From Euglena gracilis (Eukaryota): a stretch of DNA of 64,000 nt. Shown here piece after piece: positions 1 to 47,928 of this stretch. The stretch is taken from NCBI GenBank assembly GCA_039621445.1, contig CP154954.1:48525847-48589846 (forward strand). Reading direction: 5' to 3'. The notes beneath the pieces were generated by a model. It did not search any database. It saw only the letters and a program-made list of their open reading frames with translations, and was not told the DNA's origin. Numbering within the stretch: position 1 is the first letter of the stretch; each line of letters starts with the position of its first letter. Made by a program: the position numbers and the translations under genes.

Positions 1-732
1 CCGGGCGCCTGCTGGCGGAGGCGAGGGTGGGGGTGGCAAGGGGCGGGACCCGGTGACTGTGCCTGCTGCGGGTCACCCTCAAGGCAGGCGGTGTACACCT
101 TTGGGGGCTCCAGTGGGTTGTCGGGCCCATCTGCTTGCCTGGGCAACACCAGATAGGCCCGAAAGGACTGTGGAACCGGACTGAAACTTCTTTCCAACTT
201 AATCTTGGGGTGCGTGAATGACTGGTCAGGGGCTGAATGCGACGACAGTGCCCAGTCGGTCACAGTTCTCCCGTCGGATGCCCTGCCCGGCAACGGCCCC
301 AGTGAAGGGGTGTAGTACATAGAATGCTGGGTGGAACCGCGAACATTGGTATGGCCCAGCGAACTGCGACTCACGTGCGTCGACTGTGTGCCTCAGCATC
401 AGATCATCCCCCATGTACTGTGTGGATTTGGGACCGAAAGACGCTCAGGACATGCACGCCACAAGCCAAAATCAGTCAGCAAACGGACGGGTTGGCGAGA
501 CAGGCACGAGCTACGCGGTGTTTCCACCAACGTCACCCTTCGCTCCAACAACGCCCTTCACAAAGTCCAAAGTGGCAAATGGGATCGCCGGAGTCATTGG
601 GGTGTGTTCTTTTGGGGCCAAGGAAGGTTTCTCTGGAACATCCATATCCGATCCCATGCATCTCTGATTTTTCCCGACTTCTTTCTACCCATTTGGGTGG
701 ACGACACGGGCAGCCAGCCAGGGTCCGAGGGG

Positions 733-811
733 GACAGGCAGCCCCACCCGCAGCGCAACGCCCACCAGAACCCCCACCCGCAGCAGCACCGAGAGCCGCA
801 CCCGCACCGCA
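733..811 (+). CDS. Exon A of repeat unit 1 (79 nt)
   Basis: Preceded by CCG+N5 (725-732) and followed by N3+CGG (812-817). Reads (g) aca ggc agc ccc...acc gca. Confidence 0.75.
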
Positions 812-3800
812 GCCCGGCCTCCGCCGGCCCTGGGGGCGCCCGTCCTCCACTGCCGGAGATACCAGGGGTGGAACTCCACCGGGTTAGGGGAGGGAGGGGG
901 GGGGGGGCAGGTAGACAGTCGGCAAGGAGCGGCGTTGGGGCTGGGGGGCCTCCTGGGACTGGTTAGGCGGGGATGGGGGCTTTTGTGCTGGGCACGGGGG
1001 CTGGGACCCTTCTGCTGGCTGGGAGGCTGGCCGCGGGGCCAGCGGACGCCAGGGTCCGACCCCCACAGGCTCAGCGTCGCCCACCACGAGCGCCACGGGG
1101 ACGGACAGCCAGACGGAGAGTGGCAGCGAGAGCACAGCCTCCGCCACCCGCAGCGTGACCCTGGCAGCGACCAGCAGCGGGACGCCGACGGTGACGGGTA
1201 GCGCCACAGTCTCCCCGAGCCGCAGTGAGACGCGCACAGCGAGCGTCACGGAGGCCGGGCGCCTGCTGGCGGAGGCGAGGGTGGGGGTGGCAAGGGGCGG
1301 GACCCGGTGACTGTGCCTGCTGCGGGTCACCCTCAAGGCAGGCGGTGTACACCTTTGGGGGCTCCAGTGGGTTGTCGGGCCCATCTGCTTGCCTGGGCAA
1401 CACCAGATAGGCCCGAAAGGACTGTGGAACCGGACTGAAACTTCTTTCCAACTTAATCTTGGGGTGCGTGAATGACTGGTCAGGGGCTGAATGCGACGAC
1501 AGTGCCCAGTCGGTCACAGTTCTCCCGTCGGATGCCCTGCCCGGCAACGGCCCCAGTGAAGGGGTGTAGTACATAGAATGCTGGGTGGAACCGCGAACAT
1601 TGGTATGGCCCAGCGAACTGCGACTCACGTGCGTCGACTGTGTGCCTCAGCATCAGATCATCCCCATGTACTGTGTGGATTTGGGACCGAAAGACGCTCA
1701 GGACATGCACGCCACAAGCCAAAATCAGTCAGCAAACGGACGGGTTGGCGAGACAGGCACGAGCTACGCGGTGTTTCCACCAACGTCACCCTTCGCTCCA
1801 ACAACGCCCTTCACAAAGTCCAAAGTGGCAAATGGGATCGCCGGAGTCATTGGGGTGTGTTCTTTTGGGGCCAAGGAAGGTTTCTCTGGAACATCCATAT
1901 CCGATCCCATGCATCTCTGATTTTTCCCGACTTCTTTCTACCCATTTGGGTGGACGACACGGGCAGCCAGCCAGGGTCCGAGGGGGACAGGCAGCCCCAC
2001 CCGCAGCGCAACGCCCACCAGAACCCCCACCCGCAGCAGCACCGAGAGCCGCACCCGCACCGCAGCCCGGCCTCCGCCGGCCCTGGGGGCGCCCGTCCTC
2101 CACTGCCGGAGATACCAGGGGTGGAACTCCACCGGGTTAGGGGAGGGAGGGGGGGGGGCAGGTAGACAGTCGGCAAGGAGCGGCGTTGGGGCTGGGGGGC
2201 CTCCTGGGACTGGTTAGGCGGGGATGGGGGCTTTTGTGCTGGGCACGGGGGCTGGGACCCTTCTGCTGGCTGGGAGGCTGGCCGCGGGGCCAGCGGACGC
2301 CAGGGTCCGACCCCCACAGGCTCAGCGTCGCCCACCACGAGCGCCACGGGGACGGACAGCCAGACGGAGAGTGGCAGCGAGAGCAGCACAGCCTCCGCCA
2401 CCCGCAGCGTGACCCTGGCAGCGACCAGCAGCGGGACGCCGACGGTGACGGGTAGCGCCACAGTCTCCCCGAGCCGCAGTGAGACGCGCACAGCGAGCGT
2501 CACGGAGGCCGGGCGCCTGCTGGCGGAGGCGAGGGTGGGGGTGGCAAGGGGCGGGACCCGGTGACTGTGCCTGCTGCGGGTCACCCTCAAGGCAGGCGGT
2601 GTACACCTTTGGGGGCTCCAGTGGGTTGTCGGGCCCATCTGCTTGCCTGGGCAACACCAGATAGGCCCGAAAGGACTGTGGAACCGGACTGAAACTTCTT
2701 TCCAACTTAATCTTGGGGTGCGTGAATGACTGGTCAGGGGCTGAATGCGACGACAGTGCCCAGCCGGTCACAGTTCTCCCGTCGGATGCCCTGCCCGGCA
2801 ACGGCCCCAGTGAAGGGGTGTAGTACATAGAATGCTGGGTGGAACCGCGAACATTGGTATGGCCCAGCGAACTGCGACTCACGTGCGTCGACTGTGTGCC
2901 TCAGCCTCAGAAGATCATCCCCCATGTACTGTGTGGATTTGGGACCGAAAGACGCTCAGGACATGCACGCCACAAGCCAAAATCAGTCAGCAAACGGACG
3001 GGTTGGCGAGACAGGCACGAGCTACGCGGTGTTTCCACCAACGTCACCCTTCGCTCCAACAACGCCCTTCACAAAGTCCAAAGTGGCAAATGGGATCGCC
3101 GGAGTCATTGGGGTGTGTTCTTTTGGGGCCAAGGAAGGTTTCTCTGGAACATCCATATCCGATCCCATGCATCTCTGATTTTTCCCGACTTCTTTCTACC
3201 CATTTGGGTGGACGACACGGGCAGCCAGCCAGGGTCCGAGGGGGACAGGCAGCCCCACCCGCAGCGCAACGCCCACCAGAACCCCCACCCGCAGCAGCAC
3301 CGAGAGCCGCACCCGCACCGCAGCCCGGCCTCCGCCGGCCCTGGGGGCGCCCGTCCTCCACTGCCGGAGATACCAGGGGTGGAACTCCACCGGGTTAGGG
3401 GAGGGAGGGGGGGGGGGCAGGTAGACAGTCGGCAAGGAGCGGCGTTGGGGCTGGGGGGCCTCCTGGGACTGGTTAGGCGGGGATGGGGGCTTTTGTGCTG
3501 GGCACGGGGGCTGGGACCCTTCTGCTGGCTGGGAGGCTGGCCGCGGGGCCAGCGGACGCCAGGGTCCGACCCCCACAGGCTCAGCGTCGCCCACCACGAG
3601 CGCCACGGGGACGGACAGCCAGACGGAGAGTGGCAGCGAGAGCGGCACAGCCTCCGCCACCCGCAGCGTGACCCTGGCAGCGACCAGCAGCGGGACGCCG
3701 ACGGTGACGGGTAGCGCCACAGTCTCCCCGAGCCGCAGTGAGACGCGCACAGCGAGCGTCACGGAGGCCGGGCGCCTGCTGGCGGAGGCGAGGGTGGGGG

Positions 3801-6800
3801 TGGCAAGGGGCGGGACCCGGTGACTGTGCCTGCTGCGGGTCACCCTCAAGGCAGGCGGTGTACACCTTTGGGGGCTCCAGTGGGTTGTCGGGCCCATCTG
3901 CTTGCCTGGGCAACACCAGATAGGCCCGAAAGGACTGTGGAACCGGACTGAAACTTCTTTCCAACTTAATCTTGGGGTGCGTGAATGACTGGTCAGGGGC
4001 TGAATGCGACGACAGTGCCCAGTCGGTCACAGTTCTCCCGTCGGATGCCCTGCCCGGCAACGGCCCCAGTGAAGGGGTGTAGTACATAGAATGCTGGGTG
4101 GAACCGCGAACATTGGTATGGCCCAGCGAACTGCGACTCACGTGCGTCGACTGTGTGCCTCAGCATCAGATCATCCCCCATGTACTGTGTGGATTTGGGA
4201 CCGAAAGACGCTCAGGACATACACGCCACAAGCCAAAATCAGTCAGCAAACGGACGGGTTGGCGAGACAGGCACGAGCTACGCGGTGTTTCCACCAACGT
4301 CACCCTTCGCTCCGACAACGCCCTTCACAAAGTCCAAAGTGGCAAATGGGATCGCCGGAGTCATTGGGGTGTGTTCTTTTGGGGCCAAGGAAGGTTTCTC
4401 TGGAACATCCATATCCGATCCCATGCATCTCTGATTTTTCCCGACTTCTTTCTACCCATTTGGGTGGACGACACGGGCAGCCAGCCAGGGTCCGAGGGGG
4501 ACAGGCAGCCCCACCCGCAGCGCAACGCCCACCAGAACCCCCACCCGCAGCAGCACCGAGAGCCGCACCCGCACCGCAGCCCGGCCTCCGCCGGCCCTGG
4601 GGGCGCCCGTCCTCCACTGCCGGAGATACCAGGGGTGGAACTCCACCGGGTTAGGGGAGGGAGGGGGGGGGCAGGTAGACAGTCGGCAAGGAGCGGCGTT
4701 GGGGCTGGGGGGCCTCCTGGGACTGGTTAGGCGGGGATGGGGGCTTTTGTGCTGGGCACGGGGGCTGGGACCCTTCTGCTGGCTGGGAGGCTGGCCGCGG
4801 GGGCAGCGGACGCCAGGGTCCGACCCCCACAGGCTCAGCGTCGCCCACCACGAGCGCCACGGGGACGGACAGCCAGACGGAGAGTGGCAGCGAGAGCGGC
4901 ACAGCCTCCGCCACCCGCAGCGTGACCCTGGCAGCGACCAGCAGCGGGACGCCGACGGTGACGGGTAGCGCCACAGTCTCCCCGAGCCGCACAGCGAGCG
5001 TCACGGAGGCCAGGCGCCTGCTGGCGGAGGCGAGGGTGGGGGTGGCAAGGGGCGGGACCCGGTGACTGTGCCTGCTGCGGGTCACCCTCAAGGCAGGCGG
5101 TGTAAACCTTTGGGGGCTCCAGTGGGTTGTCGGGCCCATCTGCTTGCCTGGGCAGCACCAGATAGGCCCGAAAGGACTGTGGAACCGGACTGAAACTTCT
5201 TTCCAACTTAATCTTGGGGTGCGTGAATGACTGGTCAGGGGCTGAATGCGACGACAGTGCCCAGCCGGTCACAGTTCTCCCGTCGGATGCCCTGCCCGGC
5301 AACGGCCCCAGTGAAGGGGTGTAGTACATAGAATGCTGGGTGGAACCGCGAACATTGGTATGGCCCAGCGAACTGCGACTCACGTGCGTCGACTGTGTGC
5401 CTCAGCCTCAGAAGATCATCCCCATGCACTGTGTGGATTTGGGACCGAAAGACGCTCAGGACATGCACGCCACAAGCCAAAATCAGTCAGCAAACGGACG
5501 GGTTGGCGAGACAGGCACGAGCTACGCGGTGTTTCCACCAACGTCACCCTTCGCTCTAACAACGCCCTTCACAAAGTCCAAAGTGGCAAATGGGATCGCC
5601 GGAGTCATTGGGGTGTGTTCTTTTGGGGCCAAGGAAGGTTTCTCTGGAACATCCATATCCGATCCCATGCATCTCTGATTTTTTTTTTTTTTTTTCTACC
5701 CATTTGGGTGGACGACACGGGCAGCCAGCCAGGGTCCGAGGGGGACAGGCAGCCCCACCCGCAGCGCAACGCCCACCAGAACCCCCACCCGCAGCAGCAC
5801 CGAGAGCCGCACCCGCACCGCAGCCCGGCCTCCGCCGGCCCTGGGGGCGCCCGTCCTCCACTGCCGGAGATACCAGGGGTGGAACTCCACCGGGTTAGGG
5901 GAGGGAGGGGGGGGGCAGGTAGACAGTCGGCAAGGAGCGGCGTTGGGGCTGGGGGGCCTCCTGGGACTGGTTAGGCGGGGATGGGGGCTTTTGTGCTGGG
6001 CACGGGGGCTGGGACCCTTCTGCTGGCTGGGAGGCTGGCCGCGGGGCCAGCGGACGCCAGGGTCCGACCCCCACAGGCTCAGCGTCGCCCACCACGAGCG
6101 CCACGGGGACGGACAGCCAGACGGAGAGTGGCAGCGAGAGCGGCACAGCCTCCGCCACCCGCAGCGTGACCCTGGCAGCGACCAGCAGCGGGACGCCGAC
6201 GGTGACGGGTAGCGCCACAGTCTCCCCGAGCCGCAGTGAGACGCGCACAGCGAGCGTCACGGAGGCCGGGCGCCTGCTGGCGGAGGCGAGGGTGGGGGTG
6301 GCAAGGGGCGGGACCCGGTGACTGTGCCTGCTGCGGGTCACCCTCAAGGCAGGCGGTGTACACCTTTGGGGGCTCCAGTGGGTTGTCGGGCCCATCTGCT
6401 TGCCTGGGCAGCACCAGATAGGCCCGAAAGGACTGTGGAACCGGACTGAAACTTCTTTCCAACTTAATCTTGGGGTGCGTGAATGACTGGTCAGGGGCTG
6501 AATGCGACGACAGTGCCCAGCCGGTCACAGTTCTCCCGTCGGATGCCCTGCCCGGCAACGGCCCCAGTGAAGGGGTGTAGTACATAGAATGCTGGGTGGA
6601 ACCGCGAACATTGGTATGGCCCAGCGAACTGCGACTCACGTGCGTCGACTGTGTGCCTCAGCATCAGATCATCCCCATGTACTGTGTGGATTTGGGACCG
6701 AAAGACGCTCAGGACATGCACGCCACAAGCCAAAATCAGTCAGCAAACGGACGGGTTGGCGAGACAGGCACGAGCTACGCGGTGTTTCCACCAACGTCAC

Positions 6801-9800: not shown

Positions 9801-12800
9801 GAGGCTGGCCGCGGGGCCAGCGGACGCCAGGGTCCGACCCCCACAGGCTCAGCGTCGCCCACCACGAGCGCCACGGGGACGGACAGCCAGACGGAGAGTG
9901 GCAGCGAGAGCGGCACAGCCTCCGCCACCCGCAGCGTGACCCTGGCAGCGACCAGCAGCGGGACGCCGACGGTGACGGGTAGCGCCACAGTCTCCCCGAG
10001 CCGCAGTGAGACGCGCACAGCGAGCGTCACGGAGGCCGGGCGCCTGCTGGCGGAGGCGAGGGTGGGGGTGGCAAGGGGCGGGACCCGGTGACTGTGCCTG
10101 CTGCGGGTCACCCTCAAGGCAGGCGGTGTACACCTTTGGGGGCTCCAGTGGGTTGTCGGGCCCATCTGCTTGCCTGGGCAGCACCAGATAGGCCCGAAAG
10201 GACTGTGGAACCGGACTGAAACTTCTTTCCAACTTAATCTTGGGGTGCGTGAATGACTGGTCAGGGGCTGAATGCGACGACAGTGCCCAGCCGGTCACAG
10301 TTCTCCCGTCGGATGCCCTGCCCGGCAACGGCCCCAGTGAAGGGGTGTAGTACATAGAATGCTGGGTGGAACCGCGAACATTGGTATGGCCCAGCGAACT
10401 GCGACTCACGTGCGTCGACTGTGTGCCTCAGCCTCAGAAGATCATCCCCATGCACTGTGTGGATTTGGGACCGAAAGACGCTCAGGACATACACGCCACA
10501 AGCCAAAATCAGTCAGCAAACGGACGGGTTGGCGAGACAGGCACGAGCTACGCGGTGTTTCCACCAACGTCACCCTTCGCTCCGACAACGCCCTTCACAA
10601 AGTCCAAAGTGGCAAATGGGATCGCCGGAGTCATTGGGGTGTGTTCTTTTGGGGCCAAGGAAGGTTTCTCTGGAACATCCATATCCGATCCCATGCATCT
10701 CTGATTTTTCCCGACTTCTTTCTACCCATTTGGGTGGACGACACGGGCAGCCAGCCAGGGTCCGAGGGGGACAGGCAGCCCCACCCGCAGCGCAACGCCC
10801 ACCAGAACCCCCACCCGCAGCACCGAGAGCCGCACCCGCACCGCAGCCCGGCCTCCGCCGGCCCTGGGGGCGCCCGTCCTCCACTGCCGGAGATACCAGG
10901 GGTGGAACTCCACCGGGTTAGGGGAGGGAGGGGGGGGGCAGGTAGACAGTCGGCAAGGAGCGGCGTTGGGGCTGGGGGGCCTCCTGGGACTGGTTAGGCG
11001 GGGATGGGGGCTTTTGTGCTGGGCACGGGGGCTGGGACCCTTCTGCTGGCTGGGAGGCTGGCCGCGGGGCCAGCGGACGCCAGGGTCCGACCCCCACAGG
11101 CTCAGCGTCGCCCACCACGAGCGCCACGGGGACGGACAGCCAGACGGAGAGTGGCAGCGAGAGCGGCACAGCCTCCGCCACCCGCAGCGTGACCCTGGCA
11201 GCGACCAGCAGCGGGACGCCGACGGTGACGGGTAGCGCCACAGTCTCCCCGAGCCGCAGTGAGACGCGCACAGCGAGCGTCACGGAGGCCGGGCGCCTGC
11301 TGGCGGAGGCGAGGGTGGGGGTGGCAAGGGGCGGGACCCGGTGACTGTGCCTGCTGCGGGTCACCCTCAAGGCAGGCGGTGTACACCTTTGGGGGCTCCA
11401 GTGGGTTGTCGGGCCCATCTGCTTGCCTGGGCAGCACCAGATAGGCCCGAAAGGACTGTGGAACCGGACTGAAACTTCTTTCCAACTTCTTGGGGTGCGT
11501 GAATGACTGGTCAGGGGCTGAATGCGACGACAGTGCCCAGCCGGTCACAGTTCTCCCGTCGGATGCCCTGCCCGGCAACGGCCCCAGTGAAGGGGTGTAG
11601 TACATAGAATGCTGGGTGGAACCGCGAACATTGGTATGGCCCAGCGAACTGCGACTCACGTGCGTCGACTGTGTGCCTCAGCCTCAGAAGATCATCCCCC
11701 ATGTACTGTGTGGATTTGGGACCGAAAGACGCTCAGGACATGCACGCCACAAGCCAAAATCAGTGACCGGTTGGCGAGACAGGCACGAGCTACGCGGTGT
11801 TTCCACCAACGTCACCCTTCGCTCCAACAACGCCCTTCACAAAGTCCAAAGTGGCAAATGGGATCGCCGGAGTCATTGGGGTGTGTTCTTTTGGGGCCAA
11901 GGAAGGTTTCTCTGGAACATCCATATCCGATCCCATGCATCTCTGATTTTTCCCGACTTCTTTCTACCCATTTGGGTGGACGACACGGGCAGCCAGCCAG
12001 GGTCCGAGGGGGACAGGCAGCCCCACCCGCAGCGCAACGCCCACCAGAACCCCCAGGGCCTCCGCCGGCCCTGGGGGGCGCCTGTCCTCCACTGCCGGAG
12101 ATACCAGGGGTGGAACTCCACCGGGTTAGGGGAGGGAGGGGGGGGGGGCAGGTAGACAGTCGGCAAGGAGCGGCGTTGGGGCTGGGGGGCCTCCTGGGAC
12201 TGGTTAGGCGGGGATGGGGGCTTTTGTGCTGGGCACGGGGGCTGGGACCCTTCTGCTGGCTGGGAGGCTGGCCGCGGGGCCAGCGGACGCCAGGGTCCGA
12301 CCCCCACAGGCTCAGCGTCGCCCACCACGAGCGCCACGGGGACGGACAGCCAGACGGAGAGTGGCAGCGAGAGCGGCACAGCCTCCGCCACCCGCAGCGT
12401 GACCCTGGCAGCGACCAGCAGCGGGACGCCGACGGTGACGGGTAGCGCCACAGTCTCCCCGAGCCGCAGTGAGACGCGCACAGCGAGCGTCACGGAGGCC
12501 GGGCGCCTGCTGGCGGAGGCGAGGGTGGGGGTGGCAAGGGGCGGGACCCGGTGACTGTGCCTGCTGCGGGTCACCCTCAAGGCAGGCGGTGTACACCTTT
12601 GGGGGCTCCAGTGGGTTGTCGGGCCCATCTGCTTGCCTGGGCAGCACCAGATAGGCCCGAAAGGACTGTGGAACCGGACTGAAACTTCTTTCCAACTTAA
12701 TCTTGGGGTGCGTGAATGACTGGTCAGGGGCTGAATGCGACGACAGTGCCCAGCCGGTCACAGTTCTCCCGTCGGATGCCCTGCCCGGCAACGGCCCCAG

Positions 12801-13468: not shown

Positions 13469-13502
<34 letters not shown>

Positions 13503-16500: not shown

Positions 16501-19500
16501 CAATTGCAATTCTATTCTATTGCAAGGCTGTGTTCGTAGCAACATGGCTTTGGTCAAAATATGTGTTTCCAAAAAAACGCAGACTCTGACCTGAGTCCGT
16601 GTTTCGAAACGCTGAGTCTGTTTCTTCGTTTTGAAACGCAGACTCAGGTCAGAGTGCGTTTGAGACACAGTTCTTGACATAGAGATTGTTTCTTTCAAAA
16701 TGGAAGAAAAAAGCATCCCGGAAAAAAAGAGACAAAAGGCTGGTCGACATTAACGGATTTCAGACTGAAACTTACAATGTCGCAAAACGGAACAAAAAGG
16801 CATTCAAAAAAAAGGAAACAAAAGGTCGGTCGACTTCCAAGACATCGGAATCCGTTTATGTCAGTCGATTTCCATTCAGGCCCCCTTTTATTTCAGTCGA
16901 TTTCCATTCAGGCGCCCGTTGACGGGCCAAAAGCCCCTTTTATGACCATATTTCTGTCCAGGCGGTTCGGTCGAATGAATATCAAGACAGGCGTCGGGCC
17001 CAGACAAAATAGGTTTTATAAAAATCGACCGACACTGACAGATTCAGCAGGGGTGCCGGGCGGCTCGGTTCGCTCGCTCGCGCCCGGCGCCCCTGCTGAA
17101 TCTGTTAGTGTCGGTCGATTTTTGTGTTAAAACCTATTTTCTGGGCCCGACGCCTGTCTTGAAATTCTACTGACATTAACGGATTTCAGGCCGAAATTGT
17201 TTATGTCAGTCGATTTCCATTCAGGCGCCCGTTTATGTCGCTCGATTTCCATTCAGGCGCCCGGTTATGTCAGTCGATTTCCATTCCATTAAAATATGTT
17301 GCTGGTCAGATTGGGAATTTTTATTGACTTTTTGGACATTTTGGATTTCCCTTTTTTTCGACATTTTTGATCCTATGGGGTTCTGGAGGCGTCATGGACC
17401 AGACAAAAACCAAATTTTGCGGTCAGGTGATCACAGCTGGCGGAACTTTGGATGGAACTTAAGATTATCTGAAACTTCAGAAAAAGCATTCGGCAAATTT
17501 GGGCCAATTCATTTGTCATCGCTGGTCGTCTGAAAGATAAGCTTTCGGGTGAGGGGTGATTTGGCAATGTTAAAACCCATTCTGGGCTCGATGCCTGTAT
17601 TGCAATTCTATTGGGCTCTGGGCGGTAGACTTGGGGGGGGTAGTGGGTGGTCGGCCGACTAGTCGGCCGACCACCCAACTGGTCGGCCGACTAGGCCTGG
17701 TCGGCAGCTAGCAGGGATTGTCAAAAAGCGATTTAAATCAGGTAATTTTGGACACCCAATTTAAATCCCTCACGAATTTTCGACAAACGTCGAAAAATGT
17801 CGATTATTATCCGCCAGAGCTCGCGATTTTGAATTAGGATCTTACCAGACGGTGGTGGGGCGAACCGAATCCACCGACCAGTGGCGCAGCCTTGGTCGAC
17901 CACCGACCAGTGGCGCAGCAACGCTTCTGGGGGCAGCAGTGTGCCGCGGCTCGCCAACAGAAACTGCTGAACAACCTTGTGGGAGGCGACAAGCTGAAGT
18001 TCCAATGTCAAGCGAAGCCTCATGCCATGGCACGGGCGTCAGTGATGCCGTCCGCTGGCACAAGGACCCTCATCCCCACGAGGGAATTCCAGGCCCTGGT
18101 TCAGTGGTCATTGGGTGCCACGGTCGTGACGCCCACAGAGGGGTCACCCGGCTGCCCCAGGTGCCACAACCCGCTGGATGTAAGAGGACACCACCACGTC
18201 TGTTGCCAGCTGGCCAATTAGGGGGGGGTTACTCATTTCAAGGGAAAATGTCTTTATTTGGGTGTTTTAGGGGGTTCGCGACTGTAAAGGACGGGGTCCA
18301 GGTGGCCAATTGGGGGGGGGGGTAGGGGTAACCCCCCCCCCCTAATTGCCCCCCCCCCAATTGGCCAGAAGGGGGTCCGGATCTGGCCTGGGGGGGGGTA
18401 GTGGGGGTCGACCATGGTCGACCCACGGTCGCCTCGGTCGCCCTCGGTCGCTCTCGGTCGGGGGGGGGGGGGGGGAGTGGGGGGGGACGACCGAGGCGAC
18501 CCTGGGGGTCGACCGAGGGCGACCATGGTCGACCCCCACCCCACGACAGGAAACCCCCCCCTTTTGAAGGGCGACCATGGTCGACCCCCACCCCACGACG
18601 GGAAACCCCCCCTTTTGAAGGGCGACCATGCTCACCCCCACCCCACGACGGGAACCCCCCCCCCTCTGGTCGGGGGGCGACCATGGTCGACCCCCACCCT
18701 TGTGTTGCCCACCCGTTTTGGGGGGCAAATCCCTTTTGTTGCCCAACTGATTTGCGGGGCAAATCCCTTTTGTTGCCCAACTGTTCGAGGGCCCCAAAAT
18801 AACAAAATCCCTTGTGTTACCCAACTGATTTGGGGGGCAAATCCCTTTTGTTGCCCAACTGTTCGAGGGCCCCAAAATAACAAAATCCCTTGTGTTACCC
18901 ACCCGTTTTGGGGGGCAAATCCCTTTTGTTGCCCAACTGTTCGAGTGACCCTGCAACACCCTTTTGTTGCGTATCTGTTCGAGGGCCCCAAAATAACAAA
19001 ATCCCTTGTGTTACCCACCCGTTTTGGGGGGCAAATCCCTTTTGTTGCCCAACTGTTCGAGGGCCCCAAAATAACAAAATCCCTTGTGTTACCCACCCGT
19101 TTTGGGGGGCAAATCCCTTTTGTTGCCCAACTGTTCGAGGGCCCCAAAATAACAAAATCCCTTGTGTTACCCACCCGTTTTGGGGGGCAATCCCTTTTGT
19201 TGCCCAACTGTTCGAGGGCCCCAAAATAACAAAATCCCTTGTGTTACCCACCCGTTTTGGGGGGCAAATCCCTTTTGTTGCCCAACTGATTTGGGGGGCC
19301 AAAACCTTTTGTTGCCCAACTGTTCGAGGGCCCCAAAATAACAAAATCCCTTGTGTTACCCACCCGTTTTGGGGGCAAATCCCTTTTGTTGCCCAACTGA
19401 TTTGGGGGGCAAATCCCTTTTGTTGCCCAACTGTTCGAGGGCCCCAAAATAACAAAATCCCTTGTGTTACCCACCCGTTTTGGGGGGCAAATCCCTTTTG

Positions 19501-22500
19501 TTGCCCAACTGATTTGGGGGGCAAATCCCTTTTGTTGCCCAACTGTTCGAGGGCCCCAAAATAACAAAATCCCTTGTGTTACCCACCCGTTTTGGGGGGC
19601 AAATCCCTTTTGTTGCCCAACTGTTCGAGGGCCCCAAAATAACAAAATCCCTTGTGTTACCCACCCGTTTTGGGGGGCAAATCCCTTTTGTTGCCCAACT
19701 GTTCGAGGGCCCCAAAATAACAAAATCCCTTGTGTTACCCACCCGTTTTGGGGGGCAAATCCCTTTTGTTGCCCAACTGATTTGGGGGGCAAATCCCTTT
19801 TGTTGCTCAACTGTTCGAGGGCCCCAAAATAACACAATCCCTTGTGTTGCCCACCCGTTTTGGGGGGCAAATCCCTTTTGTTGCCCAACTGATTTGGGGG
19901 GCAAATCCCTTTTGTTGCCCAACTGTTCGAGGGCCCCAAAATAACAAAATCCCTTGTGTTACCCACCCGTTTTGGGGGGCAAATCCCTTTTGCTGCCCAA
20001 CTGTTCGAGGGCCCCAAAATAACAAAATCCCTTGTGTTACCCACCCGTTTTGGGGGGCAAATCCCTTTTGTTGCCCAACTGATTTGCGGGGCAAATCCCT
20101 TTTGTTGCCCAACTGTTCGAGGGCCCCAAAATAACAAAATCCCTTGTGTTGCCCACCCGTTTTGGGGGGCAAATCCCTTTTGCTGCCCAACTGTTCGAGG
20201 GCCCCAAAATAACAAAATCCCTTGTGTTACCCACCCGTTTTGGGGGGCAAATCCCTTTTGTTGCCCAACTGTTCGAGGGCCCCAAAATAACAAAATCCCT
20301 TGTGTTACCCACCCGTTTTGGGTGGGCAAATCCCTGGGTTGTCGGGCCCATCTGCTTGCCTGGGCAGCACCAGATAGGCCCGAAAGGACTGTGGAACCGG
20401 ACTGAAACTTCTTTCCAACTTCATCTTGGGGTGCGTGAATGACTGGTCAGGGGCTGAATGCGACGACAGTGCCCAACCGGTCACAGTTCTCCCGTCGGAT
20501 GCCCTGCCCGGCAACGGCCCCAGTGAAGGGGTGTAGTCCATAGAATGCTGGGTGGAACCGCGAACATTGGTATGGCCCAGCGAACTGCGACTCACGTGCG
20601 TCGACTGTGTGCCTCAGCCTCAGAAGGTCATCCCCCATGTACTGTGTGGATTTGGGACCGAAAGACGCTCAGGACATGCACGCCACAAGCCAAAATCAGT
20701 GACCGGTTGGCGAGACAGGCACGAGCTACGCGGTGTTTCCACCAACGTCACCCTTCGCTCCAACAACGCCCTTCACAAAGTCCAAAGTGGCAAATGGGAT
20801 CGCCGGAGTCATTGGGGTGTGTTCTTTTGGGGCCAAGGAAGGTTTCTCTGGAACATCCATATCCGATCCCATGCGTCTCTGATTTTCCCCGACTTCTTTC
20901 TACCCATTTGGGTGGACGACACGGGCAGCCAGCCAGGGTCCGAGGGGGACAGGCAGCCCCACCCGCAGCGCAACGCCCACCAGAACCCCCACCCGCAGCA
21001 GCACCGAGAGCCGCACCCGCACCGCAGCCCGGCCTCCGCCGGCCCTGGGGTGCGCCTGTCCTCCACTGCCGGAGATACCAGGGGTGGAACTCCACCGGGT
21101 TAGGGGAGGGAGGGGGGGGGGCAGGTAGACAGTCGGCAAGGAGCGGCGTTGGGGCTGGGGGGCCTCCTGGGACCGGTTAGGCGGGGATGGGGGCTTTTGT
21201 GCTGGGCACGGGGGCTGGGACCCTTCTGCTGGCTGGGAGGCTGGCCGCGGGGCCAGCGGACGCCAGGGTCCGACCCCCACAGGCTCAGCGTCGCCCACCA
21301 CGAGCGCCACGGGGACGGACAGCCAGACGGAGAGTGGCAGCGAGAGCGGCACAGCCTCCGCCACCCGCAGCGTGACCCTGGCAGCGACCAGCAGTGGGAC
21401 GCCGACGGTGACGGGTAGCGCCACAGTCTCCCCGAGCCGCAGTGAGACACGTACGACGAGCGTCACGGAGGCCGGGCGCCTGCTGGCGGAGGCAAGTTTC
21501 CCTGGACCCAAGCAGTGCTAACATGGCCCCGAATTGGGCAATTTGGGTCGTCAATAAGATTTTTTTTTGCATAATTTGCAGTTTTTTTTTGACGTTGTTC
21601 GATCGTTAGTCAGGACCATCTCCAGCCCGGAAGAGCCAGCAGCCTTTCTCAGCCAGTCCAAGGGGGTCCAGCCTCTGTGCTGTACACCCTTGGCGGGGGT
21701 CATTAAAAAACCACCCTGGGCCGAACTGCGGGTGTGGGCGGCAAGACACGGGACCGAAAGGATTGTGGATGGAAACTGGACCAGACTCCGTTGTTTTTTT
21801 TGCCAACAGGCAAAACGGGGCCTTGAATGGCTGGTCAATGCGACCACAGTGTCCAGGCAGCAGCGGTTCTTCTGACTGACACCATCCCCGGCAAGGGCCC
21901 CGGTGAGGGGGTGGGATACAGGCAGGCTGTGTACAACCGTGAACATCGCTGTGTTCCCAATAATTGCACCCTGCATAGCTACCGGGTTCAATTTTGCACA
22001 ACAGCCTCGAAAGTTAATCCTCCATGGAACGTGTGGATTGAGAACGAAAGATGCACTACCACCTTTCCACTCATATGGGTCGGTGGGCAAATGGCGGTGA
22101 TGGGCAGCCGGCAGCCCCAGCTGGGGTCCGAGGGGGACAGGCAGCCCCACCCGCAGCGCAACGCCCACCAGAACCCCCACCCGCAGCAGCACCGAGAGCC
22201 ACACCCGCACCGCAACCCGGCCTCCGCCGGCCCTGGGGATACCCGGCCCCCACTGCCGGAGATCGTTGGGGATGATGGGCATTTGGTGGGAGGGAGGTGA
22301 GGCCGGTGCAGGCGAGAAGGGGCCGTTGCGGGGCACAGGGGCTGGGAGGCTGGCAGCGGAGCGGGGCTGCTGGCCGCGGACGCCGGGGTCCGACCCCCAC
22401 AGGGTCGGCATCGCCCACCAAGAGTGCAACGGGGACGGGCAGCCAGACGGAGACCGGCAGTGAGAGCGGCACGGGCAGGCGCCTGTTGCGGAAAACGGCC

Positions 22501-25500
22501 TAAAATGTTCTAAGAGGGCTCAAAATGGCCTATGGGGGCCTAAAATGGCCTAAAACAAAACTTTTGAAAAAATTGTGAGTCATAGTTATATGCCTTTGCC
22601 ATCCATGAAGGTTCAAGGGTTGTAGCACATTGCAAGCATAGCAGGCCTTCCGGCGGATGACCCAGCTTAAATCAGCCCCAAATGGCCTGAAGTGGCCGAA
22701 CCCGATCGTCATTGATTCCTCCACTTCAGATTGCAAAGTCTGCATCTGAAGTGGAGTTTGCAAAGTCTGCACTCTTTTGACTTATTTGTATGGCCAGGGT
22801 TCAAAAACCTGTTCCTCAAAATCCACAATCCTTTCTCCTCACCAACAAGAAGTCAGAATCACTTCATCCTCAATGACTGGGAATCTGGTGTGGTGGGGAT
22901 CCCTGGCTCTTGGTTCTGGAAAAAACACCCAGGAAGGGGAGTGCAAATTGTGGGACTTGAATAAGACAGGCCGCAATGTGGAACACAGGCCGCAATTTCG
23001 TTCTTCATTTTCCACGTCTTTCAAGAATTCTTTTCAGGACTTTTCCCGCTGGAATTCAAGAAAACCAGTACCCTCTGGTGAACATTTGAAGTTTCTTCTG
23101 CATTTTGCACTGGTTCCTTGATGTGGAATTGTTTCGTTACAATAAAGAGTTCCGTGTGTTCTGATTGCACTGATCTCTTTGATGCTTTTTTTTAAGTGAT
23201 TCAATTTTTTTTACCGTTGGAGCTGATAAATCCCAGGTTTGGTTCTGGTGCCATTGGATTTCCTTAAAAGGATTCGGTATTGGTTGTTTTGCATCCATCC
23301 CTCTCATTTTCATTAATTTGCCTGACAGAAGGAACAGAAAAATCCTCCCATTCAGAATTCCCCTTGGCGAAAAATGTGATCGCAGAGGGAAGTAAGGTTT
23401 GATTGAAGCTCACCAGGAATTTCAGTGAATTTTTGTACAAATTATCGAAGTTTTCTGCACCAATATCAGTGCACTATTTTCCTTTGCTTTTTGGAGTGTT
23501 TGGAGTAATCTCCAAAAACTCCAGAGTTAAGCTTTAAACAGTTGAAATTTTCAATTTTAAGTGAACGAGGAATTGGTATGACTTCTGTTGAAATGTGTGA
23601 TTCTCTTAGGTGTTCTGTCCAGAAATCCCCCCGGCATTTCAAACGTTTGTCCATTATATTTCGCCCGGCAAAGTTTCTTCCCACAGTAAATGCCTTCGGA
23701 ATTCTCCTCACATAAGTGTGATTGTTGAGGGGACATTTTCAGCTTTGCAGAGATTCCCCAGGGTTTGTTCATTTTACATCATCATCATTATCATCATTTT
23801 TCTTGCCATGCATTCTTTGAATTATCCAAGAACTGTGTGCCACACAATTCAGTTTAGTTCGGAAATTGAGCTGTTCTGGACCCCCACCTGTGGGCGATAA
23901 TGGCCTAAAGGGTAAATGGCCTTAAATGAATTTAATGGGCAAATGTTTTGGGCTGGACCACAGGTGCCTGGGCACGGCCTCCACCACCCGCAGCGTGACC
24001 CTGGCAGCGACCAGCAGCGGGACGCCGACGGTGACGGGTAGCGCCACAGTCTCCCCGAGCCGCAGTGAGACGTGCACGACGAGCGCCACGGAGGCCGGGC
24101 GCCTGCTGGCGGAGGCGAGGGTGGGGGTGGCAAGGGCTGGGGCCCGGTGACTGTGGCCGCTTCGGCTCACCCTCAAGAGGGGGGGTTGGTTTGGGATTCC
24201 TGTCCTTGTCGGTCCCTGAGCCCAACCAGGGCGTATCTTAAAAAATTTTGAACTCACCATCCAGGGGACCAGCCAGCCAGCAGCCTTTTTCCAGCTCCGG
24301 ACCCCCCTCCCCCACATCGAGTTTTTATTTGTTTCCAGCCACCCTAAGGGGGATGGAAAGTAACGGATTCTTTGCTTTCCGGGGGTGCAAAAAAATGGGC
24401 CGAAAATGACCAAAAACACGGGCCTGAACAGGGCTGGCAGGACAACTTTGGGTCAAACAGCAATTGTTTTTGCAAAATTTTCAGTTGTTTGGACATTTTT
24501 GCAGTTTCGATTTTGGGTAAACGGTTTGACCCTCAGTTGGGCTCATCTCCAGCCTGGGACCCCTGGGTTGGGGTGGGGTGTCAGCCGGCAGCCGTTTTCC
24601 TGTATGCCTCTGGGTTCAATTTTGCACAACAGCCTCGAAAGTTAATCCTCCATGGAACGTGTGGATCAGGGCCGAAAGACTATCACCTTTCCACTCATAT
24701 GGGTCGGTGGGCAACTGGCGTATGGGCAGCCGGCAGCCCCAGCTGGGGTCCGAGGGGGACAGGCAGCCCCACCCGCAGCGCAACGCCCACCAGAACCCCC
24801 ACCCGCAGCAGCACCGAGAGCCACACCCGCACCGCAACCCGGCCTCCGCCGGCCCTGGGGATACCCGGCCCCCACCACCAGAGATCGTTGGGGATGATGG
24901 GCATTTGGTGGGAGGGAGGTGAGGCCGGTGCAGGCGAGAAGGGGGCCGTTGCGGGGCACAGGGGCTGGGAGGCTGGCAGCGGAGCGGGGCTGCTGGCCGC
25001 GGACGCCGGGGTCCGACCCCCACAGGGTCGGCATCGCCCACCAAGAGTGCAACGGGGACGGGCAGCCAGACGGAGACCGGCAGTGAGAGCGGCACGGGCA
25101 GGCGCCTGTTGCGGAAAACGGCCTAAAATGTTCTAAGAGGACTCAATATGGCCTATGAGGGCCTAAAATGGCCTAAAACAAAACTTTTGAAAGAAATGGT
25201 GAGTCATAGTTATATGCCTTTGCCATCCATGAAGGTTCAAGGGTTGTAGCACATTGCAAGCATAGCAGGCCTTCCGGTGGATGACCCAGCTTAAATCAGC
25301 CCCAAATGGCCTGAAGTGGCCGAACCCGATCGTCATTGATTCCTCCACTTCAGATTGCAAAGTCCTCTTTTGACTTATTTGTATGGCCAGGGTTCAAAAT
25401 CCCGTTCCTCAAAATCCACAATCCTTTCTCCTCACCAACAAGAAGTCAGAATCACTTCATCCTCAATGAATTCTGGTGTGGTGGGGATCCCTGGCTCTTG

Positions 25501-27007
25501 GTTCTGGAAAAAACACCCAGGAAGGGGAGTGCAAATTGTGGGACTTGAATAAGACCCGCCGCAATGTGGAACACAGGCCGCAATTTCGTTCTTCATTTTC
25601 CACGTCTTTCAAGAATTCTTTTCAGGACTTTTCCCGCTGGAATTCAAGAAAACCAATATCCTCTGGTGAACATTTGAAGTTTCTTCTGCATTTTGCACTG
25701 GTTCCTTGATGTGGAATTGTTTCATTACAATAAAGAGTTCCGTGTGTTCTGATTGTACTGATCTCTTTGATGCTTTTTTTTAAGCGATTCAATTTTTTTT
25801 TTACCGTTGGAGCTGATAAACCCCAGGTTTGGTTCTGGTGCCATTGGATTTCCTTAAAAGGGTTCGGTATTGGTTGTTTTGCATCCATCCCTCTCATTTT
25901 CACTAATTTGCCTGACAGAAGGAACAGAAAAATCCTCCCATTCAGAATTCCCCTTGGCGAAAAATGTGATCGCAGAGGGAAGTAAGGTTTGATTGAAGCT
26001 CACCAGGAATTTCAATGAAGTTTTGTGCAATTTATCGAAGTTTTCTGCACCATATGCATGCACTGCTTTCCATTGCTTTTTGGAGTTTTTGGAGTAATCT
26101 CCAAAATTCCAAAGTTAAGCTTTTAAACATTTGAGTTTTTGAGTTGAAGAGAACGAGGAATTGGTATGACTTCTGTTGAAATGTGTGATTCTCTTAGGTG
26201 TTCTGTCCAGAAATCCCCCCGGCATTTCAAACGTTTGTCCATTATATTTCGCCCGGCAAAGTTTTTTCCCACAGTGAATGCTTCCCTTCAATGAGCCCCT
26301 CACAGAAGTGTTATTGGTGAGGGTGTAACTTCGGCTTTGCAGAGCTTTTCCACTGTTTGCTCATTTCCCATCAACTATTCATCATTTTTCTTGCCGTTCG
26401 TATTTGAATTACCCCAGAACCATGTGCCACACAATTTAATTTGATTCGGAAATTGAGCTGTTCTGGACCCCCACCTGTGGGCGATAATGGCCTAAAGGGT
26501 AAATGGCGTTGAATGAATTTAATGGGCAAATGTTTTGGGCTGGACCACAGGTGCCTGGGCACGGCCTCCACCACCCGCAGCGTGACCCTGGCAGCGACCA
26601 GCAGCGGGACGCCAACGGTGACGGGTAGCGCCACAGTCTCCCCGAGCCGCAGTGAGACGTGCACGACGAGCGCCACGGAGGCCGGGCGCCTGCTGGCGGA
26701 GGCGAGGGTGGGGGTGGCAAGGGCTGGGGCCCGGTGACTGTGGCCGCTTCGGCTCACCCTCAAGAGGGGGGGTTGGTTTGGGATTCCTGTCCTTGTCGGT
26801 CCCTGAGCCCAACCAGGGCGTATCTTAAAAAATTAAGTTACCTCAGGGGGGGTCTCCAGCCAGCCAGCAGCCATTTTCCAGCTCCGGACCCCCCTCCCCA
26901 CCCGTCAACGAGTTTTTATTTATTTATTTCCATCCACCTGAAGGGCGGATGGACAGTGACGGATTTTTCGCTTTGCAAGAATGAGCCAAAAAAAAAAAAA
27001 AAAAAAA

Positions 27008-27049
<42 letters not shown>

Positions 27050-27141
27050 AAAAAAAAAAAAAAAAAAAGAAAAAAACAAAAAAAAAAAAAAAAAAAAAAA
27101 ACAAAAAAAAAAAAAAAAAAAAAAAATGGAAAATAAAAAAA

Positions 27142-27190
<49 letters not shown>

Positions 27191-28360
27191 AAAAAAAAAA
27201 AAAACAAAAAAAATGGGAGAAAATGGGTTGGAACATGGCTGGCGGGACAAATTTGGGGTCAAAACACAAGTTTTTTTTTGCATAATTTGCAGTTTTTGGG
27301 GGCATTTTTGCAGTGTCGATATTTGGCACCCACCCTGAGTCGGGCCCATCACCAGCCCAGGACACCTTCGGGGGGGGGGCAATCAGCCAGCAGCCTTTCT
27401 CCAGCCAGCTCGCTGGCGTGGATGGTGCATCACGGGACCGGAATGGCTGTGGATGGAAACTGGGCCAGACTCAGTATTTTTTTGCCAACTGCCAAAATGG
27501 GGGCCTTGAATCGCTGGTCAATGCGACTGCAGTGCCCAGCCAGCAGCGGTTCCCCTGACTGCCGCCGTCCCTGGCAACGGCCCCGGCGGTGAGGGGGTGG
27601 AATACAGACAACACTGTGCACAACCGTGAAACATCGCTGTGTTCCAAATAATTGCCTCCTGCATGTGCACAACAGCCTCAAAAGTTAATCCCCCATGAAA
27701 CGTGTGGATTAGGGCCGAAAGACTACCACCTTCCCACTCATATGGGTCGGTGGGCAATTGGCGTATGGGCAGCCGGCAGCCCCAGCTGGGGTCCGAGGGG
27801 GACAGGCAGCCCCACCCGCAGCGCAACGCCCACCAGAACCCCCACCCGCAGCAGCACCGAGAGCCACACCCGCACCGCAGCCCGGCCTCCGCCGGCCCTG
27901 GGGATACCCGGCCCCCACCACTGGAGATCGTTGGGGATGATAAGTGTTAGACACCAGGGGTGGAATTTCACCGGGTTACGGGGAGAGGGGGGCAGGTAAA
28001 GGCTGGTTTAGGCGGTGGCCGTCACAGTCGGTAAGGAGCGTTGGGTGGGGGGCACCTGATGGATGGGGGCCACGGGGATGGGGGCTTTCGTGCTGGGCAC
28101 GGGGGCTGGGACCCCTCTGCAGGCTGGGAGGCTGGCCGCGGGGCCTGCGGACGCCAGGGTCCGACCCCCACAGGCTCAGCGTCGCCCACCACGAGCGCCA
28201 CGGGGACGGACAGCCAGACGGAGAGTGGCAGCGAGAGCGGCACAGCCTCCGCCACCCGCAGCGTGACCCTGGCAGCGACCAGCAGCGGGACGCCGACGGT
28301 GACGGGTAGCGCCACAGTCTCCCCGAGCCGCAGTGAGACGCGCACAGCGAGCGTCACGGA
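733..28360 (+). CDS. Multi-exon Ser/Thr-rich (mucin/surface-glycoprotein-like) repeat protein, 5'-partial; each unit splices to 270 nt = 90 aa (TGSPTRSATPTRTPTRSSTESRTRTA-TGSASPTTSATGTDSQTESGSESGTASATRSVTLAATSSGTPTVTGSATVSPSRSETRTASVTE)
   Basis: GC3-rich codons. Between main and diverged copies of exon B, 7 of 10 changed codons are synonymous in this frame. Indels inside exons are -3, -3 and -12 nt, whereas intron indels are arbitrary. Non-canonical splice geometry joins A-B-A in frame. Function is inferred from composition only. Confidence 0.8.
812..1064 (+). other. Non-conventional intron A-B (253 nt), repeated in each unit
   Basis: gcc CGG cctccgccggccc ... gggccagcgga...ggt CCG accccc. 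The ends are complementary and removal gives gca|aca in frame. Confidence 0.7.
1065..1252 (+). CDS. Exon B of repeat unit 1 (188 nt here, 191 nt in most units)
   Basis: Open Ser/Thr-rich frame aca ggc tca...acg ga; strongly conserved in the diverged units while its flanks diverge. Confidence 0.8.
1253..1985 (+). other. Non-conventional intron B-A (733 nt), repeated in each unit
   Basis: ggc CGG gcgcctgctggc ... gccagccagggt CCG agggg. The ends pair and removal gives ga|g aca (E-T) in frame. Confidence 0.7.
16982..17162. repeat. Long near-perfect palindrome (~80-bp arms, ~20-nt loop)
   Basis: tcaagacaggcgtcgggcccaga...ggggtgccgggcg versus cgcccggcgcccc...tctgggcccgacgcctgtcttga. Flanked by direct repeats tgtcagtcgatttccattcagg. 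Confidence 0.95.
17892..18215 (+). pseudogene. Fragment of a CRE/SLACS-like (restriction-like endonuclease) non-LTR retrotransposon ORF, post-RT zinc-knuckle region
   Basis: ...PHAMARASVMPS..TLIPTREFQALVQWSLG...CPRCHNPLDVRGHHHVCC resembles the CxxC..LD..G.H..CC region that precedes the REL domain. Recognised by eye. Confidence 0.65.
18210..18368. mobile_element. Small MITE-like element
   Basis: Inverted ends ctggccaatt(a)gggggg / ccccccaattggccag; truncates the retro fragment. Confidence 0.6.
18405..18700. repeat. Cluster of cgaccatggtcg palindrome repeats
   Basis: About five copies of cgaccatggtcgacccc; two carry a ~58-bp direct repeat. Confidence 0.75.
18700..20334. repeat. Minisatellite of ~78-bp units with interspersed ~34-bp subunits
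   Basis: gggcaaatcccttttgttgcccaactgttcgagggccccaaaataacaaaatcccttgtgttacccacccgttttggg repeated. Related single copies at ~40800, ~52675-52745 and ~53371. Confidence 0.97.
22476..23970. mobile_element. TIR DNA transposon in exon B, predicted to act as a non-conventional intron (22473-23975)
   Basis: Ends caggcgcctgt / acaggtgcctg; 8-bp TSD ggcacggg (22468-22475) / ggcacggc (23971-23978). Sister units have a single ggcacagc. Confidence 0.9.
25099..26557. mobile_element. Second copy of the exon-B transposon-intron (intron 25096-26562)
   Basis: Same ends, same TSD (25091-25098 / 26558-26565) and same site; the interior is homologous but diverged. Confidence 0.9.
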
Positions 28361-29309: not shown

Positions 29310-29360
29310 CTGTCCCACACGGCGTCCGCCTCGCCCAGCCGCACCACCACCCGCTCGGCG
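29310..29360 (+). CDS. Possible further Ser/Thr-rich exon of the repeat-protein gene (LSHTASASPSRTTTRSA)
   Basis: GC3-rich Ser/Thr codons; boundaries unresolved. Confidence 0.4.
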
Positions 29361-30423: not shown

Positions 30424-30486
30424 CAGTGGGCTCCCGCGGCCACGGTGACGCAGGTGCTGCCCGCCGACCTCGCCACCGCCACCCGT
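30424..30486 (+). CDS. Possible small exon (QWAPAATVTQVLPADLATATR)
   Basis: GC3-rich island only; boundaries and parent gene unresolved. Confidence 0.35.

Positions 30487-43686: not shown

Positions 43687-43718
<32 letters not shown>

Positions 43719-47878: not shown

Positions 47879-47928
<50 letters not shown>

Follow-up and report, generated by a model that had tools for sequence, protein, structure and literature searches.

A satellite-like 1.25-kb tandem array in Euglena gracilis is probably a multi-exon gene with nonconventional introns, or was one until recently

What kind of sequence fills the first 28,360 positions of a 64,000-nucleotide (nt) stretch of the Euglena gracilis genome (assembly GCA_039621445.1, contig CP154954.1, positions 48,525,847 to 48,589,846 of the forward strand; hereafter the window)? 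A sequence-only reading of this DNA had described an apparent 1.25-kb satellite with islands of 79 and 191 nt in each of at least 17 units, which it took for a giant gene, and blastn bore out this layout after a one-base correction of the coordinates. We find that the islands behave as exons under constraint, in one frame, on the + strand. The array sequence is real; when words were sampled from 20900-30500, 17 DNA-type sequencing runs proved to contain at least half of them, and related organisms 33–46%. On balance we favour the view that the array probably is, or not long ago was, a genuine multi-exon gene that codes for protein and consists of a tandemly amplified cassette with Euglena-type introns, and its expression is a prediction.

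When unit 1 (the first 1254 bases) was compared with the window by blastn, we identified 13 full head-to-tail units of 97.0–100% identity spanning 1-16375, followed by a unit 14 whose two parts (16376-16489 and 20335-21471) are separated by 3.8 kb of inserted DNA; past this unit, similarity to unit 1 was confined to the islands, with the last match reaching 28446. The 17 units of 1-28360 thus comprise 13 canonical units of ~1254 bp, one split unit and three diverged ones, and the final exon B of the window ends at 28360 (Table 1). Between the islands, which we call exon A (79 nt) and exon B (191 nt), lie spacers of 253 nt (intron 1) and ~734 nt (intron 2); units 15 and 16, of 2.6 kb each, have an extra intron within exon B that was absent from the sequence-only reading. 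The array went unreported by Tandem Repeats Finder because the longest period of that program is 500. The G+C content is 63–67% in the array versus about 50–55% elsewhere in the window, and no frame on either strand is open across a whole unit.

The islands join into a single reading frame. Exon B begins ACA GGC TCA and ends ..ACG GA, exon A adds the G that completes this codon and itself ends on a full codon, and the joined islands form a continuous 90-codon repeat on the + strand. The exon sum is divisible by 3 in 16 of the 17 units, and the exon frame is free of stops in all 17; frames +1 and +2 of the exon regions have 2–3 stops per 270 nt. The exons have also diverged far less than the introns: units 15 and 16 differ at 1/270 exon positions and 159/2179 aligned intron positions (Fisher p = 1.4e-7), units 14 and 15 at 18/270 and 112/541 (Fisher p = 8e-8), and units 14 and 17 at 6/270 and 107/602 (Fisher p = 2e-12), with 0 gap columns in the exon alignments of the diverged pairs versus 1 to 458 in their intron alignments. 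Even the 13 young, almost identical units show the contrast, variation affecting 4/267 exon columns and 43/987 spacer columns (p = 0.028). The synonymous bias and frame-preserving indels on which the sequence-only reading had leaned were both found again: third codon positions hold 14 of the 23 exon differences (binomial p = 0.006), the exon indels among units are of 3, 3 and 12 nt, and Nei-Gojobori ratios of non-synonymous to synonymous change (dN/dS) are 0.31 for the canonical unit versus unit 15 (9 synonymous and 8 non-synonymous differences; p = 0.022) and 0.18 for the canonical unit versus unit 14. Coding-type constraint within the unit, which a non-coding satellite should lack, was found in this array.

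The spacers lack GT-AG borders, their ends being GC..CC in intron 1 (a GC start with no AG end), GG..GG in intron 2 and GG..AC in the extra intron. The passages of Nomura et al. (PMC12501133) drawn on here give a code for Euglena nonconventional introns, obtained by knock-in mutagenesis, of 5'-N3CDG-/-CH'GN5-6 followed by a purine (R) as first base of the exon; in it the donor spacer is fixed at 3, the acceptor spacer is 5, with 6 tolerated, and CGG-CCG variants are spliced. The N3-CGG...CCG-N5/N6 ends recorded in the sequence-only reading are present and fit this code: intron 1 reads N3-CGG...CCG-N6 before an A, intron 2 N3-CGG...CCG-N5 before a G and the extra intron CAG...CTG-N5 before a G, with GCC/ACC CGG, GGC CGG and GGG CAG, respectively, as donor trinucleotide and motif. 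The fit extends to intron 1 of 16 of the 17 units, 15 of the 16 copies of intron 2 and both copies of the extra intron. A random donor/acceptor pair from this DNA matches the code with P = 0.0016–0.0028. As code-like pairs are easily found, the fit is informative only where other evidence fixes the border, and two borders were fixed independently: a contig of sequencing run X20 fixes that of intron 2 (see below), and comparison with the homologous, uninterrupted exon fixes that of the extra intron. The chance of a code fit is ~0.013 for the extra intron and ~0.006 for intron 2.

The ends of these two introns are also predicted to pair. In minimum free energy (MFE) folds of whole introns, we counted pairs between the first and last 35 nt and obtained 14 for intron 2 and 11 for the extra intron, as well as 15, 28 and 7 for the three introns of the neighbouring EMG1 gene, all in the register +4:-6. 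In a short end-fold test (10 + U7 + 10, after the survey in PMC11170887), intron 2 and the extra intron gave -6.8 and -7.9 kcal/mol, values still within ~1.5 standard deviations (sd) of the mean for random array ends (-3.5, sd 2.8); 20 + U7 + 20 folds, which had no random control, gave -25.9 for intron 2, -23.1 for the extra intron and -12.5 for intron 1. In the part of that survey used here, the E. gracilis consensus is CCAGG at +3..+7 and CCTG at -9..-6 (PMC11170887). The spacers resemble the euglenid nonconventional introns described in PMC3935182 and in portions of PMC12501133, PMC11170887 and PMC6221363 in having no GT-AG, an N3-CDG donor, a complementary CH'G-N5-6 acceptor and a purine next, and intron 2 and the extra intron share their end helix; they differ in that the same two introns recur at least 16 times in one gene with near-identical ends, that intron 1 has a 3-bp core pairing only, and that excision is supported for intron 2, by one contig.

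We compared four sequencing runs with 27600-30600: contigs of X20, for which the label 'RNA?' was guessed, raw RNA reads of X21 and X24, and the DNA run X1 as a control, the X1 comparison resting on 8 of its 39 pieces. One X20 contig (record 11; 229 nt, depth 4.8) matches 28162-28360 and then directly 27801-27830, which is the predicted B-to-A junction, GTCACGGA joined to GACAGGCAGC, and it makes the joint at the code-predicted base, not at the nearby ACAG/G. Record 9 (depth 4.18) holds an unspliced canonical intron 2 continuing into exon A, and record 10 (depth 7.98) begins at the first base of exon A and goes onward. Together, the three records suggest the branch expected from coexisting spliced and unspliced forms, consistent with the late removal of euglenid nonconventional introns, for which the part of PMC6221363 consulted leads one to expect partly spliced intermediates. 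With a one-unit reference a B-to-A joint is indistinguishable from a back-splice. Among the indexed runs no RNA run was listed as containing the sequence, there was no RNA depth on 28408-30600 in the runs compared, and X21, in which 0 of 12,895,792 records aligned, counts as no test, the two raw-read runs having been read to about 5–6%.

Two positions stand out among the contig ends of these runs. The start of X20 record 11 and the end of X1 record 1 both lie at 28162, and X20 record 10 ends at 27909, which is exactly 30 nt past the start of intron 1. Variants that differ from unit to unit and break the assembly graph there are the probable cause. Nonconventional introns are excised as circular RNA according to the part of a review seen here (PMC11282704, citing a 2021 J Mol Biol paper), and a circular intron 1 junction may likewise produce the end pattern of record 10. 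In the X1 DNA control, contigs leave exon A at 27861 into different, in-frame sequence of an Ala/Thr/Pro/Arg type, with loose ends at 27861 and 27897, and the 3' half of exon B has ~2x the word depth of exon A; these exits and this excess indicate that related exons exist elsewhere in the genome in other contexts.

A control for the intron code lies on the + strand 8 kb downstream of the array, where we found an EMG1/NEP1 methyltransferase in pieces, the only Pfam match among 122 open reading frames (ORFs). Its exons were placed by P0005, a transcript-derived orthologue of 254 aa (EukProt record), and the conceptual protein obtained with code-predicted borders aligned to P0005 as a single ungapped block with 190/217 residues identical. 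This genome therefore uses the nonconventional-intron code in a gene neighbouring the array. A GT-AG intron after 36541 was considered for this gene and was ruled out by P0005 in favour of the nonconventional intron 36547-37856. Enumeration of the borders without the orthologue was ambiguous, with 8 in-frame code-conforming pairs in a small test region. An N-terminal exon may be placed at ~35580-35700, and its junction to 36353 fits neither GT-AG nor the code.

The proposal of the sequence-only reading that the array is a gene is thus upheld by the constraint on the islands, the fit to the code, the EMG1 introns and the B-to-A contig; it lacks an observed A-to-B junction and an end helix in intron 1. 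These and a number of further observations weigh against it. Intron 1 is the weak point, because it meets the minimal code but lacks an end helix: three variants gave 0 end-to-end MFE pairs, leaving the 3-bp CGG/CCG pairing, and the 10 + U7 + 10 fold (-1.0 kcal/mol) was weaker than the random mean of -3.5. We counted 85 alternative in-frame, stop-free models for intron 1, and 8 models, that of the sequence-only reading included, are intact in all 16 usable units, so that 7 others are possible. Two alternatives were tried and rejected: a donor CAG 5 nt upstream with an acceptor CTG-N6 29 nt upstream (-26.8 kcal/mol), the CAG of which is destroyed in units 15 and 16, and a GC-AG intron with its acceptor 12 nt upstream, the AG of which is destroyed in the same two units; the single changes that break both leave the original motif intact. 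In addition, the start, signal peptide, stop and poly(A) site are undefined within the window, the 5' end of the gene lying upstream of it.

Other observations of this kind would be accommodated by the rival that survives best, that the array is dead or dying: a once-functional gene with nonconventional introns, now silent, in which the constraint between diverged units records past selection. Unit 10 is out of frame through a deletion of ~38 nt across the exon A/intron 1 border, CAG and CCG are mismatched in the motif of the intron 2 that separates units 4 and 5, large insertions are present (3.8 kb, a 134-nt T tract and a 226-nt A tract), and each of the three exon changes confined to one canonical unit is non-synonymous. 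The evidence from the sequencing runs can be turned the same way. The second junction singled out by the sequence-only reading, A to B (CGCACCGCA joined to ACAGGCTCA), did not appear in X20: where exon A ends, record 10 shows no branch and continues for 30 nt of intron 1, so that this junction is below detectable depth. One of 8,290,152 X24 records (~6% of the run) aligned, and it crosses the exon B/intron 2 border unspliced. A separate caveat for the gene reading is that record 11 itself has a short side of 30 letters, one under the rule for a bridging record, and may derive from a DNA copy lacking intron 2. However, 16 of the 17 units are intact and without stops, every large insertion lies in an intron or is itself a spliceable intron, and units 15 and 16, which were duplicated after they had acquired the extra intron, differ at 1/270 exon positions versus 66/1453 positions of that intron. 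The exon columns of the young units vary less than their intron columns (p = 0.028), and the spliced B-to-A form is present in X20. We regard a silent array as possible but unlikely.

We consider it improbable that the array is a non-coding satellite, in which the Ser/Thr frame would be a by-product of GC-rich, 3-periodic DNA, the islands would be kept by gene conversion or by a role at the DNA or RNA level, and the matches to the code would be due to chance. Such a view would suit the high copy number and head-to-tail order of the units and, as a rough guide, the word depth of the exon bins in the DNA run X1 (~1500–3100 versus ~50–120 for the flank). Code-conforming pairs are common, as the EMG1 test region and the many intron 1 models illustrate, and intron 1 of units 15 and 16 matches at 181/184 positions, as alike as the exons and as a conversion tract would be. 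Nor was a protein homologue found. There was no Pfam family in the repeat, word-indexed searches with the 63-aa translation of exon B gave 0 matches among longer and near-length proteins, and a representative library gave 4 weak low-complexity matches, of which the 2 examined were SAT-repeat proteins alike in composition only; there was no usable match to this translation in the protein atlas. This blank result is mildly informative because the database holds the transcriptome proteins of a related euglenid, with the reservation that such searches readily overlook fragments of low complexity. In metagenome contigs, exact matches numbered 0 for a 26-mer of exon B and 0 for a 34-mer of exon A, and there were 0 Rfam matches over the window at gathering thresholds. 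Against a satellite stand the third-position bias with dN/dS of 0.2–0.3, the lengths of the exon indels and their absence between diverged units, the code fit at two independently fixed borders, the exact restoration of 191 nt in units 15 and 16 (see below) and the B-to-A joined molecule in X20.

A minus-strand gene, whose antisense frame would share wobble positions and encode a Val/Leu/Ala/Arg-rich protein, is very improbable: frame -1 is stop-free over the exons with a synonymous to non-synonymous count of 7:9, similar to the 8:8 of the + frame, so that substitution patterns alone leave the strand unfixed, its GC by codon position (0.87, 0.47, 0.86) is like that of the EMG1 exons, and unit 2 has a 306-aa ORF across exon B, intron 1 and exon A, but this long ORF is not kept, being split in unit 1 by changes in G-run length, there is no constraint outside the islands, downstream exons begin with a purine on the + strand only, and all three intron types fit the code on the + strand only, where the minus-strand spacers would be 5 and 3 and a donor spacer of 5 violates the 3 that the relevant part of PMC12501133 gives as exact, which makes + the coding strand.

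If the array is a gene, as we favour, a cassette of exon A (79 nt), intron 1 (~253 nt), exon B (191 nt) and intron 2 (~734 nt) would have been amplified in tandem, and its pre-mRNA would be processed by the euglenid nonconventional splicing pathway, with the CDG at +4..+6 pairing with the CH'G at -8..-6 and bringing the exon ends together. The 17 units in the window would encode a polymer of at least 1500 aa, and the array would continue upstream. The defective units 10 and 4/5 would be skipped in frame or else mark the onset of decay. Since the same strong intron 2 end helix is found in every unit and removal would be late and post-transcriptional, it is conceivable that intron 2 donors pair with acceptors of any later or earlier unit, giving a protein ladder in steps of 90 aa, in-frame skipping of units 10 and 4/5, and exon circles; we think this doubtful. 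In the intron 2 between units 4 and 5 (5008-5013), nature has supplied a mismatched version of the splicing motif; this and the 3-bp end pairing of intron 1 were absent from the sequence-only reading.

The extra intron in units 15 and 16 provides a view of a filled and an empty site in one array. Its two copies are mismatched at 66/1453 positions, its termini form an inverted repeat of 11 bp (CAGGCGCCTGT / ACAGGTGCCTG), and the 7 nt GGCACGG stand as a direct repeat at both of its borders and as a single copy at the uninterrupted site in the other 15 units. Because of this flanking repeat there are 8 equivalent cut positions, and 1 of the 8 satisfies the code (GGG CAG ... CTG GGCAC before a G), giving 74 + 117 = 191 nt, exactly the length of the canonical exon B. 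We suggest that a 1.5-kb inverted-repeat element was inserted in exon B of an ancestor of units 15 and 16 at a later stage, and that it was tolerated because it was itself a code-conforming intron. A MITE (miniature inverted-repeat transposable element) or transposon origin has been proposed for euglenid nonconventional introns in the part of a review used here (PMC11282704), and the extra intron is similar to such introners in its inverted and direct repeats and in its filled versus empty site; it differs in that the window holds no copy beyond that in unit 16, its sole match, so that a mobile family is not demonstrated, and precise loss from the other units is an alternative. Each end of the extra intron (22492-22555 and about 23890-23930) also carries AAAATGGCC motifs, which are related to the (AAAATGGCCG)n arrays further downstream (see below).

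The predicted product has an unusual composition. The 90-aa unit contains T26 S21 A10 R8 G7 P6 E5 V4 and no Cys, Lys, Asn or aromatic residues, with Pro, Thr and Ser making up 59%; the chain would be intrinsically disordered, with Pro, Thr and Ser prevailing. What this composition suggests first is a secreted, O-glycosylated, mucin-like protein, perhaps of a surface coat or mucilage; we hold this tentatively, as less likely than not. Such a gene is not described in the literature on Euglena mucin-like and mucilage glycoproteins, as judged on the titles and abstract openings of the best matches.

Three known systems bear comparison. In human LPA, the kringle IV type 2 unit comprises two exons and two introns, measures several kb and recurs in frame in a tandem series, with GT-AG introns and a folded domain. 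The array resembles it in the repetition of a mostly-intron cassette, in a copy number that sets protein length and in a locus that looks like a large tandem repeat, and differs in having nonconventional rather than spliceosomal introns and a low-complexity Thr/Ser-rich unit rather than a folded kringle. Mucin repeats usually lie in one large exon. The PTS (Pro/Thr/Ser) domains of mucins are like the unit described here in Pro+Thr+Ser content, in a tandem repeat of ~90 aa without Cys or aromatics and in a length set by repeat number; the 8 Arg per unit would be unusual for them, the similarity matches are compositional only, and no signal peptide, Cys-rich flank or sign of glycosylation was seen here. 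Lastly, the LHCPII and RuBisCO small subunit polyprotein genes of Euglena, which encode folded repeats separated by linker-peptide cleavage, were the first genes described with nonconventional introns. They too are nuclear euglenid genes with repeated coding units interrupted by such introns; the unit of the array differs from theirs in being of low complexity, with no Pfam domain or folded repeat.

The coordinates of the array and of EMG1 are collected in Table 1. The insertion at 16490-20334 consists mostly of tandem arrays (32-bp at 16855-17286; 52-, 78-, 112- and 190-bp between 18516 and 20335) with several internal inverted repeats, and it encodes no recognisable protein. The long homopolymer tracts, T x134 and A x226 in the array and the G runs further on, may reflect expansion, retro-element tails or an assembly effect. 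Past the final exon B, a candidate exon start lies at 28983, where the acceptor is among the best-pairing code-conforming ones and a 185-codon open frame follows. An 80-bp direct repeat (95% identical) is found at 32293-32372 and, ~4 kb further on and immediately before the start codon of EMG1, at 36243-36321. Downstream of EMG1 there are G runs of 29–60 (42671-42725, 43688-43716 and 47863-47922), a 163-bp tandem repeat in four arrays (41187-42006, 42832-43256, 46062-46713 and 48105-48476) and, interspersed among these arrays, (AAAATGGCCG)n arrays at 43789-43930 and 45904-45971.

Table 1. Features of the array and of the neighbouring EMG1 gene, in window coordinates.
Feature	Position	Length	Strand	Remarks
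Tandem array, 17 exon A - intron 1 - exon B - intron 2 cassettes	1..28360		+	left window edge open, start within an intron 2
Full-unit starts	1, 1255, 2509, 3768, 5010, 6266, 7520, 8780, 10036, 11289, 12499, 13877, 15130		+	blastn
Exon A, unit 1	733..811	79 nt	+	first base completes codon GA/G; 0 substituted columns among 13 full units
Exon A copies, units 2-8	1986-2064, 3244-3322, 4500-4578, 5744-5822, 6997-7075, 8257-8335, 9513-9591		+	
Exon A copies, units 9 and 11-13	10770-10845 (76 nt), 13224-13302, 14606-14684, 15856-15934		+	
Exon A copies, units 14-17	20948-21026, 22136-22214, 24758-24836, 27801-27879		+	
Truncated exon A, unit 10	12012..12055		+	~38-nt deletion takes 3' part and intron 1 donor; exon sum 235 nt, out of frame
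Intron 1, unit 1	812..1064	253 nt	+	GCC CGG ... CCG ACCCCC / A; minimal code, N6 spacer, 3-bp end pairing
Exon B, unit 1	1065..1252	188 nt	+	191 nt in most units, 179 in unit 4
Exon B copies, units 2-8	2316-2506, 3575-3765, 4829-5007, 6073-6263, 7327-7517, 8587-8777, 9843-10033		+	
Exon B copies, units 9-14 and 17	11096-11286, 12306-12496, 13684-13874, 14937-15127, 16183-16373, 21279-21469, 28170-28360		+	
Intron 2, units 1-2	1253..1985		+	GGC CGG GCGCC ... GGTCCG AGGGG / G; long end helix, register +4:-6
Intron 2 copy, units 4-5	5008..5743		+	donor CAG vs acceptor CCG (A.C mismatch) at +4..+6; fails code
T tract within intron 1 of unit 11	13470..13603	134 nt	+	
Insertion in intron 2 of unit 14	16490..20334	3.8 kb	.	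holds 32-, 78-, 112- and 190-bp tandem arrays
Exon B1', unit 15	22399..22472	74 nt	+	unit 16 copy 25022-25095
Extra intron, unit 15	22473..23975	1503 nt	+	GGG CAG GCGCCTG ... CAGGTGCCTG GGCAC / G
Exon B2', unit 15	23976..24092	117 nt	+	unit 16 copy 26563-26679
Extra intron, unit 16	25096..26562	1467 nt	+	95.5% identical to unit 15 copy over aligned columns, with indels
A tract within intron 2 preceding unit 17	26988..27213	226 nt	+	
Candidate last intron	28361..28982		+	donor GGC CGG GTGCC intact; first ~190 nt homologous to intron 2
EMG1/NEP1 exons	36353-36546, 37857-38052, 38505-38547, 38960-39183		+	Pfam and orthologue P0005
EMG1 introns	36547-37856, 38053-38504, 38548-38959		+	all N3-CAG...CTG-N5 / purine

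If the favoured interpretation is right, the gene is at least 28 kb long with a repeat unit that is 78% intron; repeat maskers would label it a satellite and gene finders based on GT-AG would be unable to model it, and the highly repetitive genomes of euglenids may conceal more such genes. For the study of splicing requirements, the array offers 16 or more nonconventional introns that are nearly the same, among them one whose motif is mismatched and one whose end helix is weak, and the extra intron would illustrate cleanly, by filled versus empty sites, how an inverted-repeat element can give rise to a new intron. Whether units are skipped because intron ends are identical can also be tested directly in the array, and, should pairing across units take place, Euglena would make a length-variable protein by RNA pairing instead of by the spliceosome.

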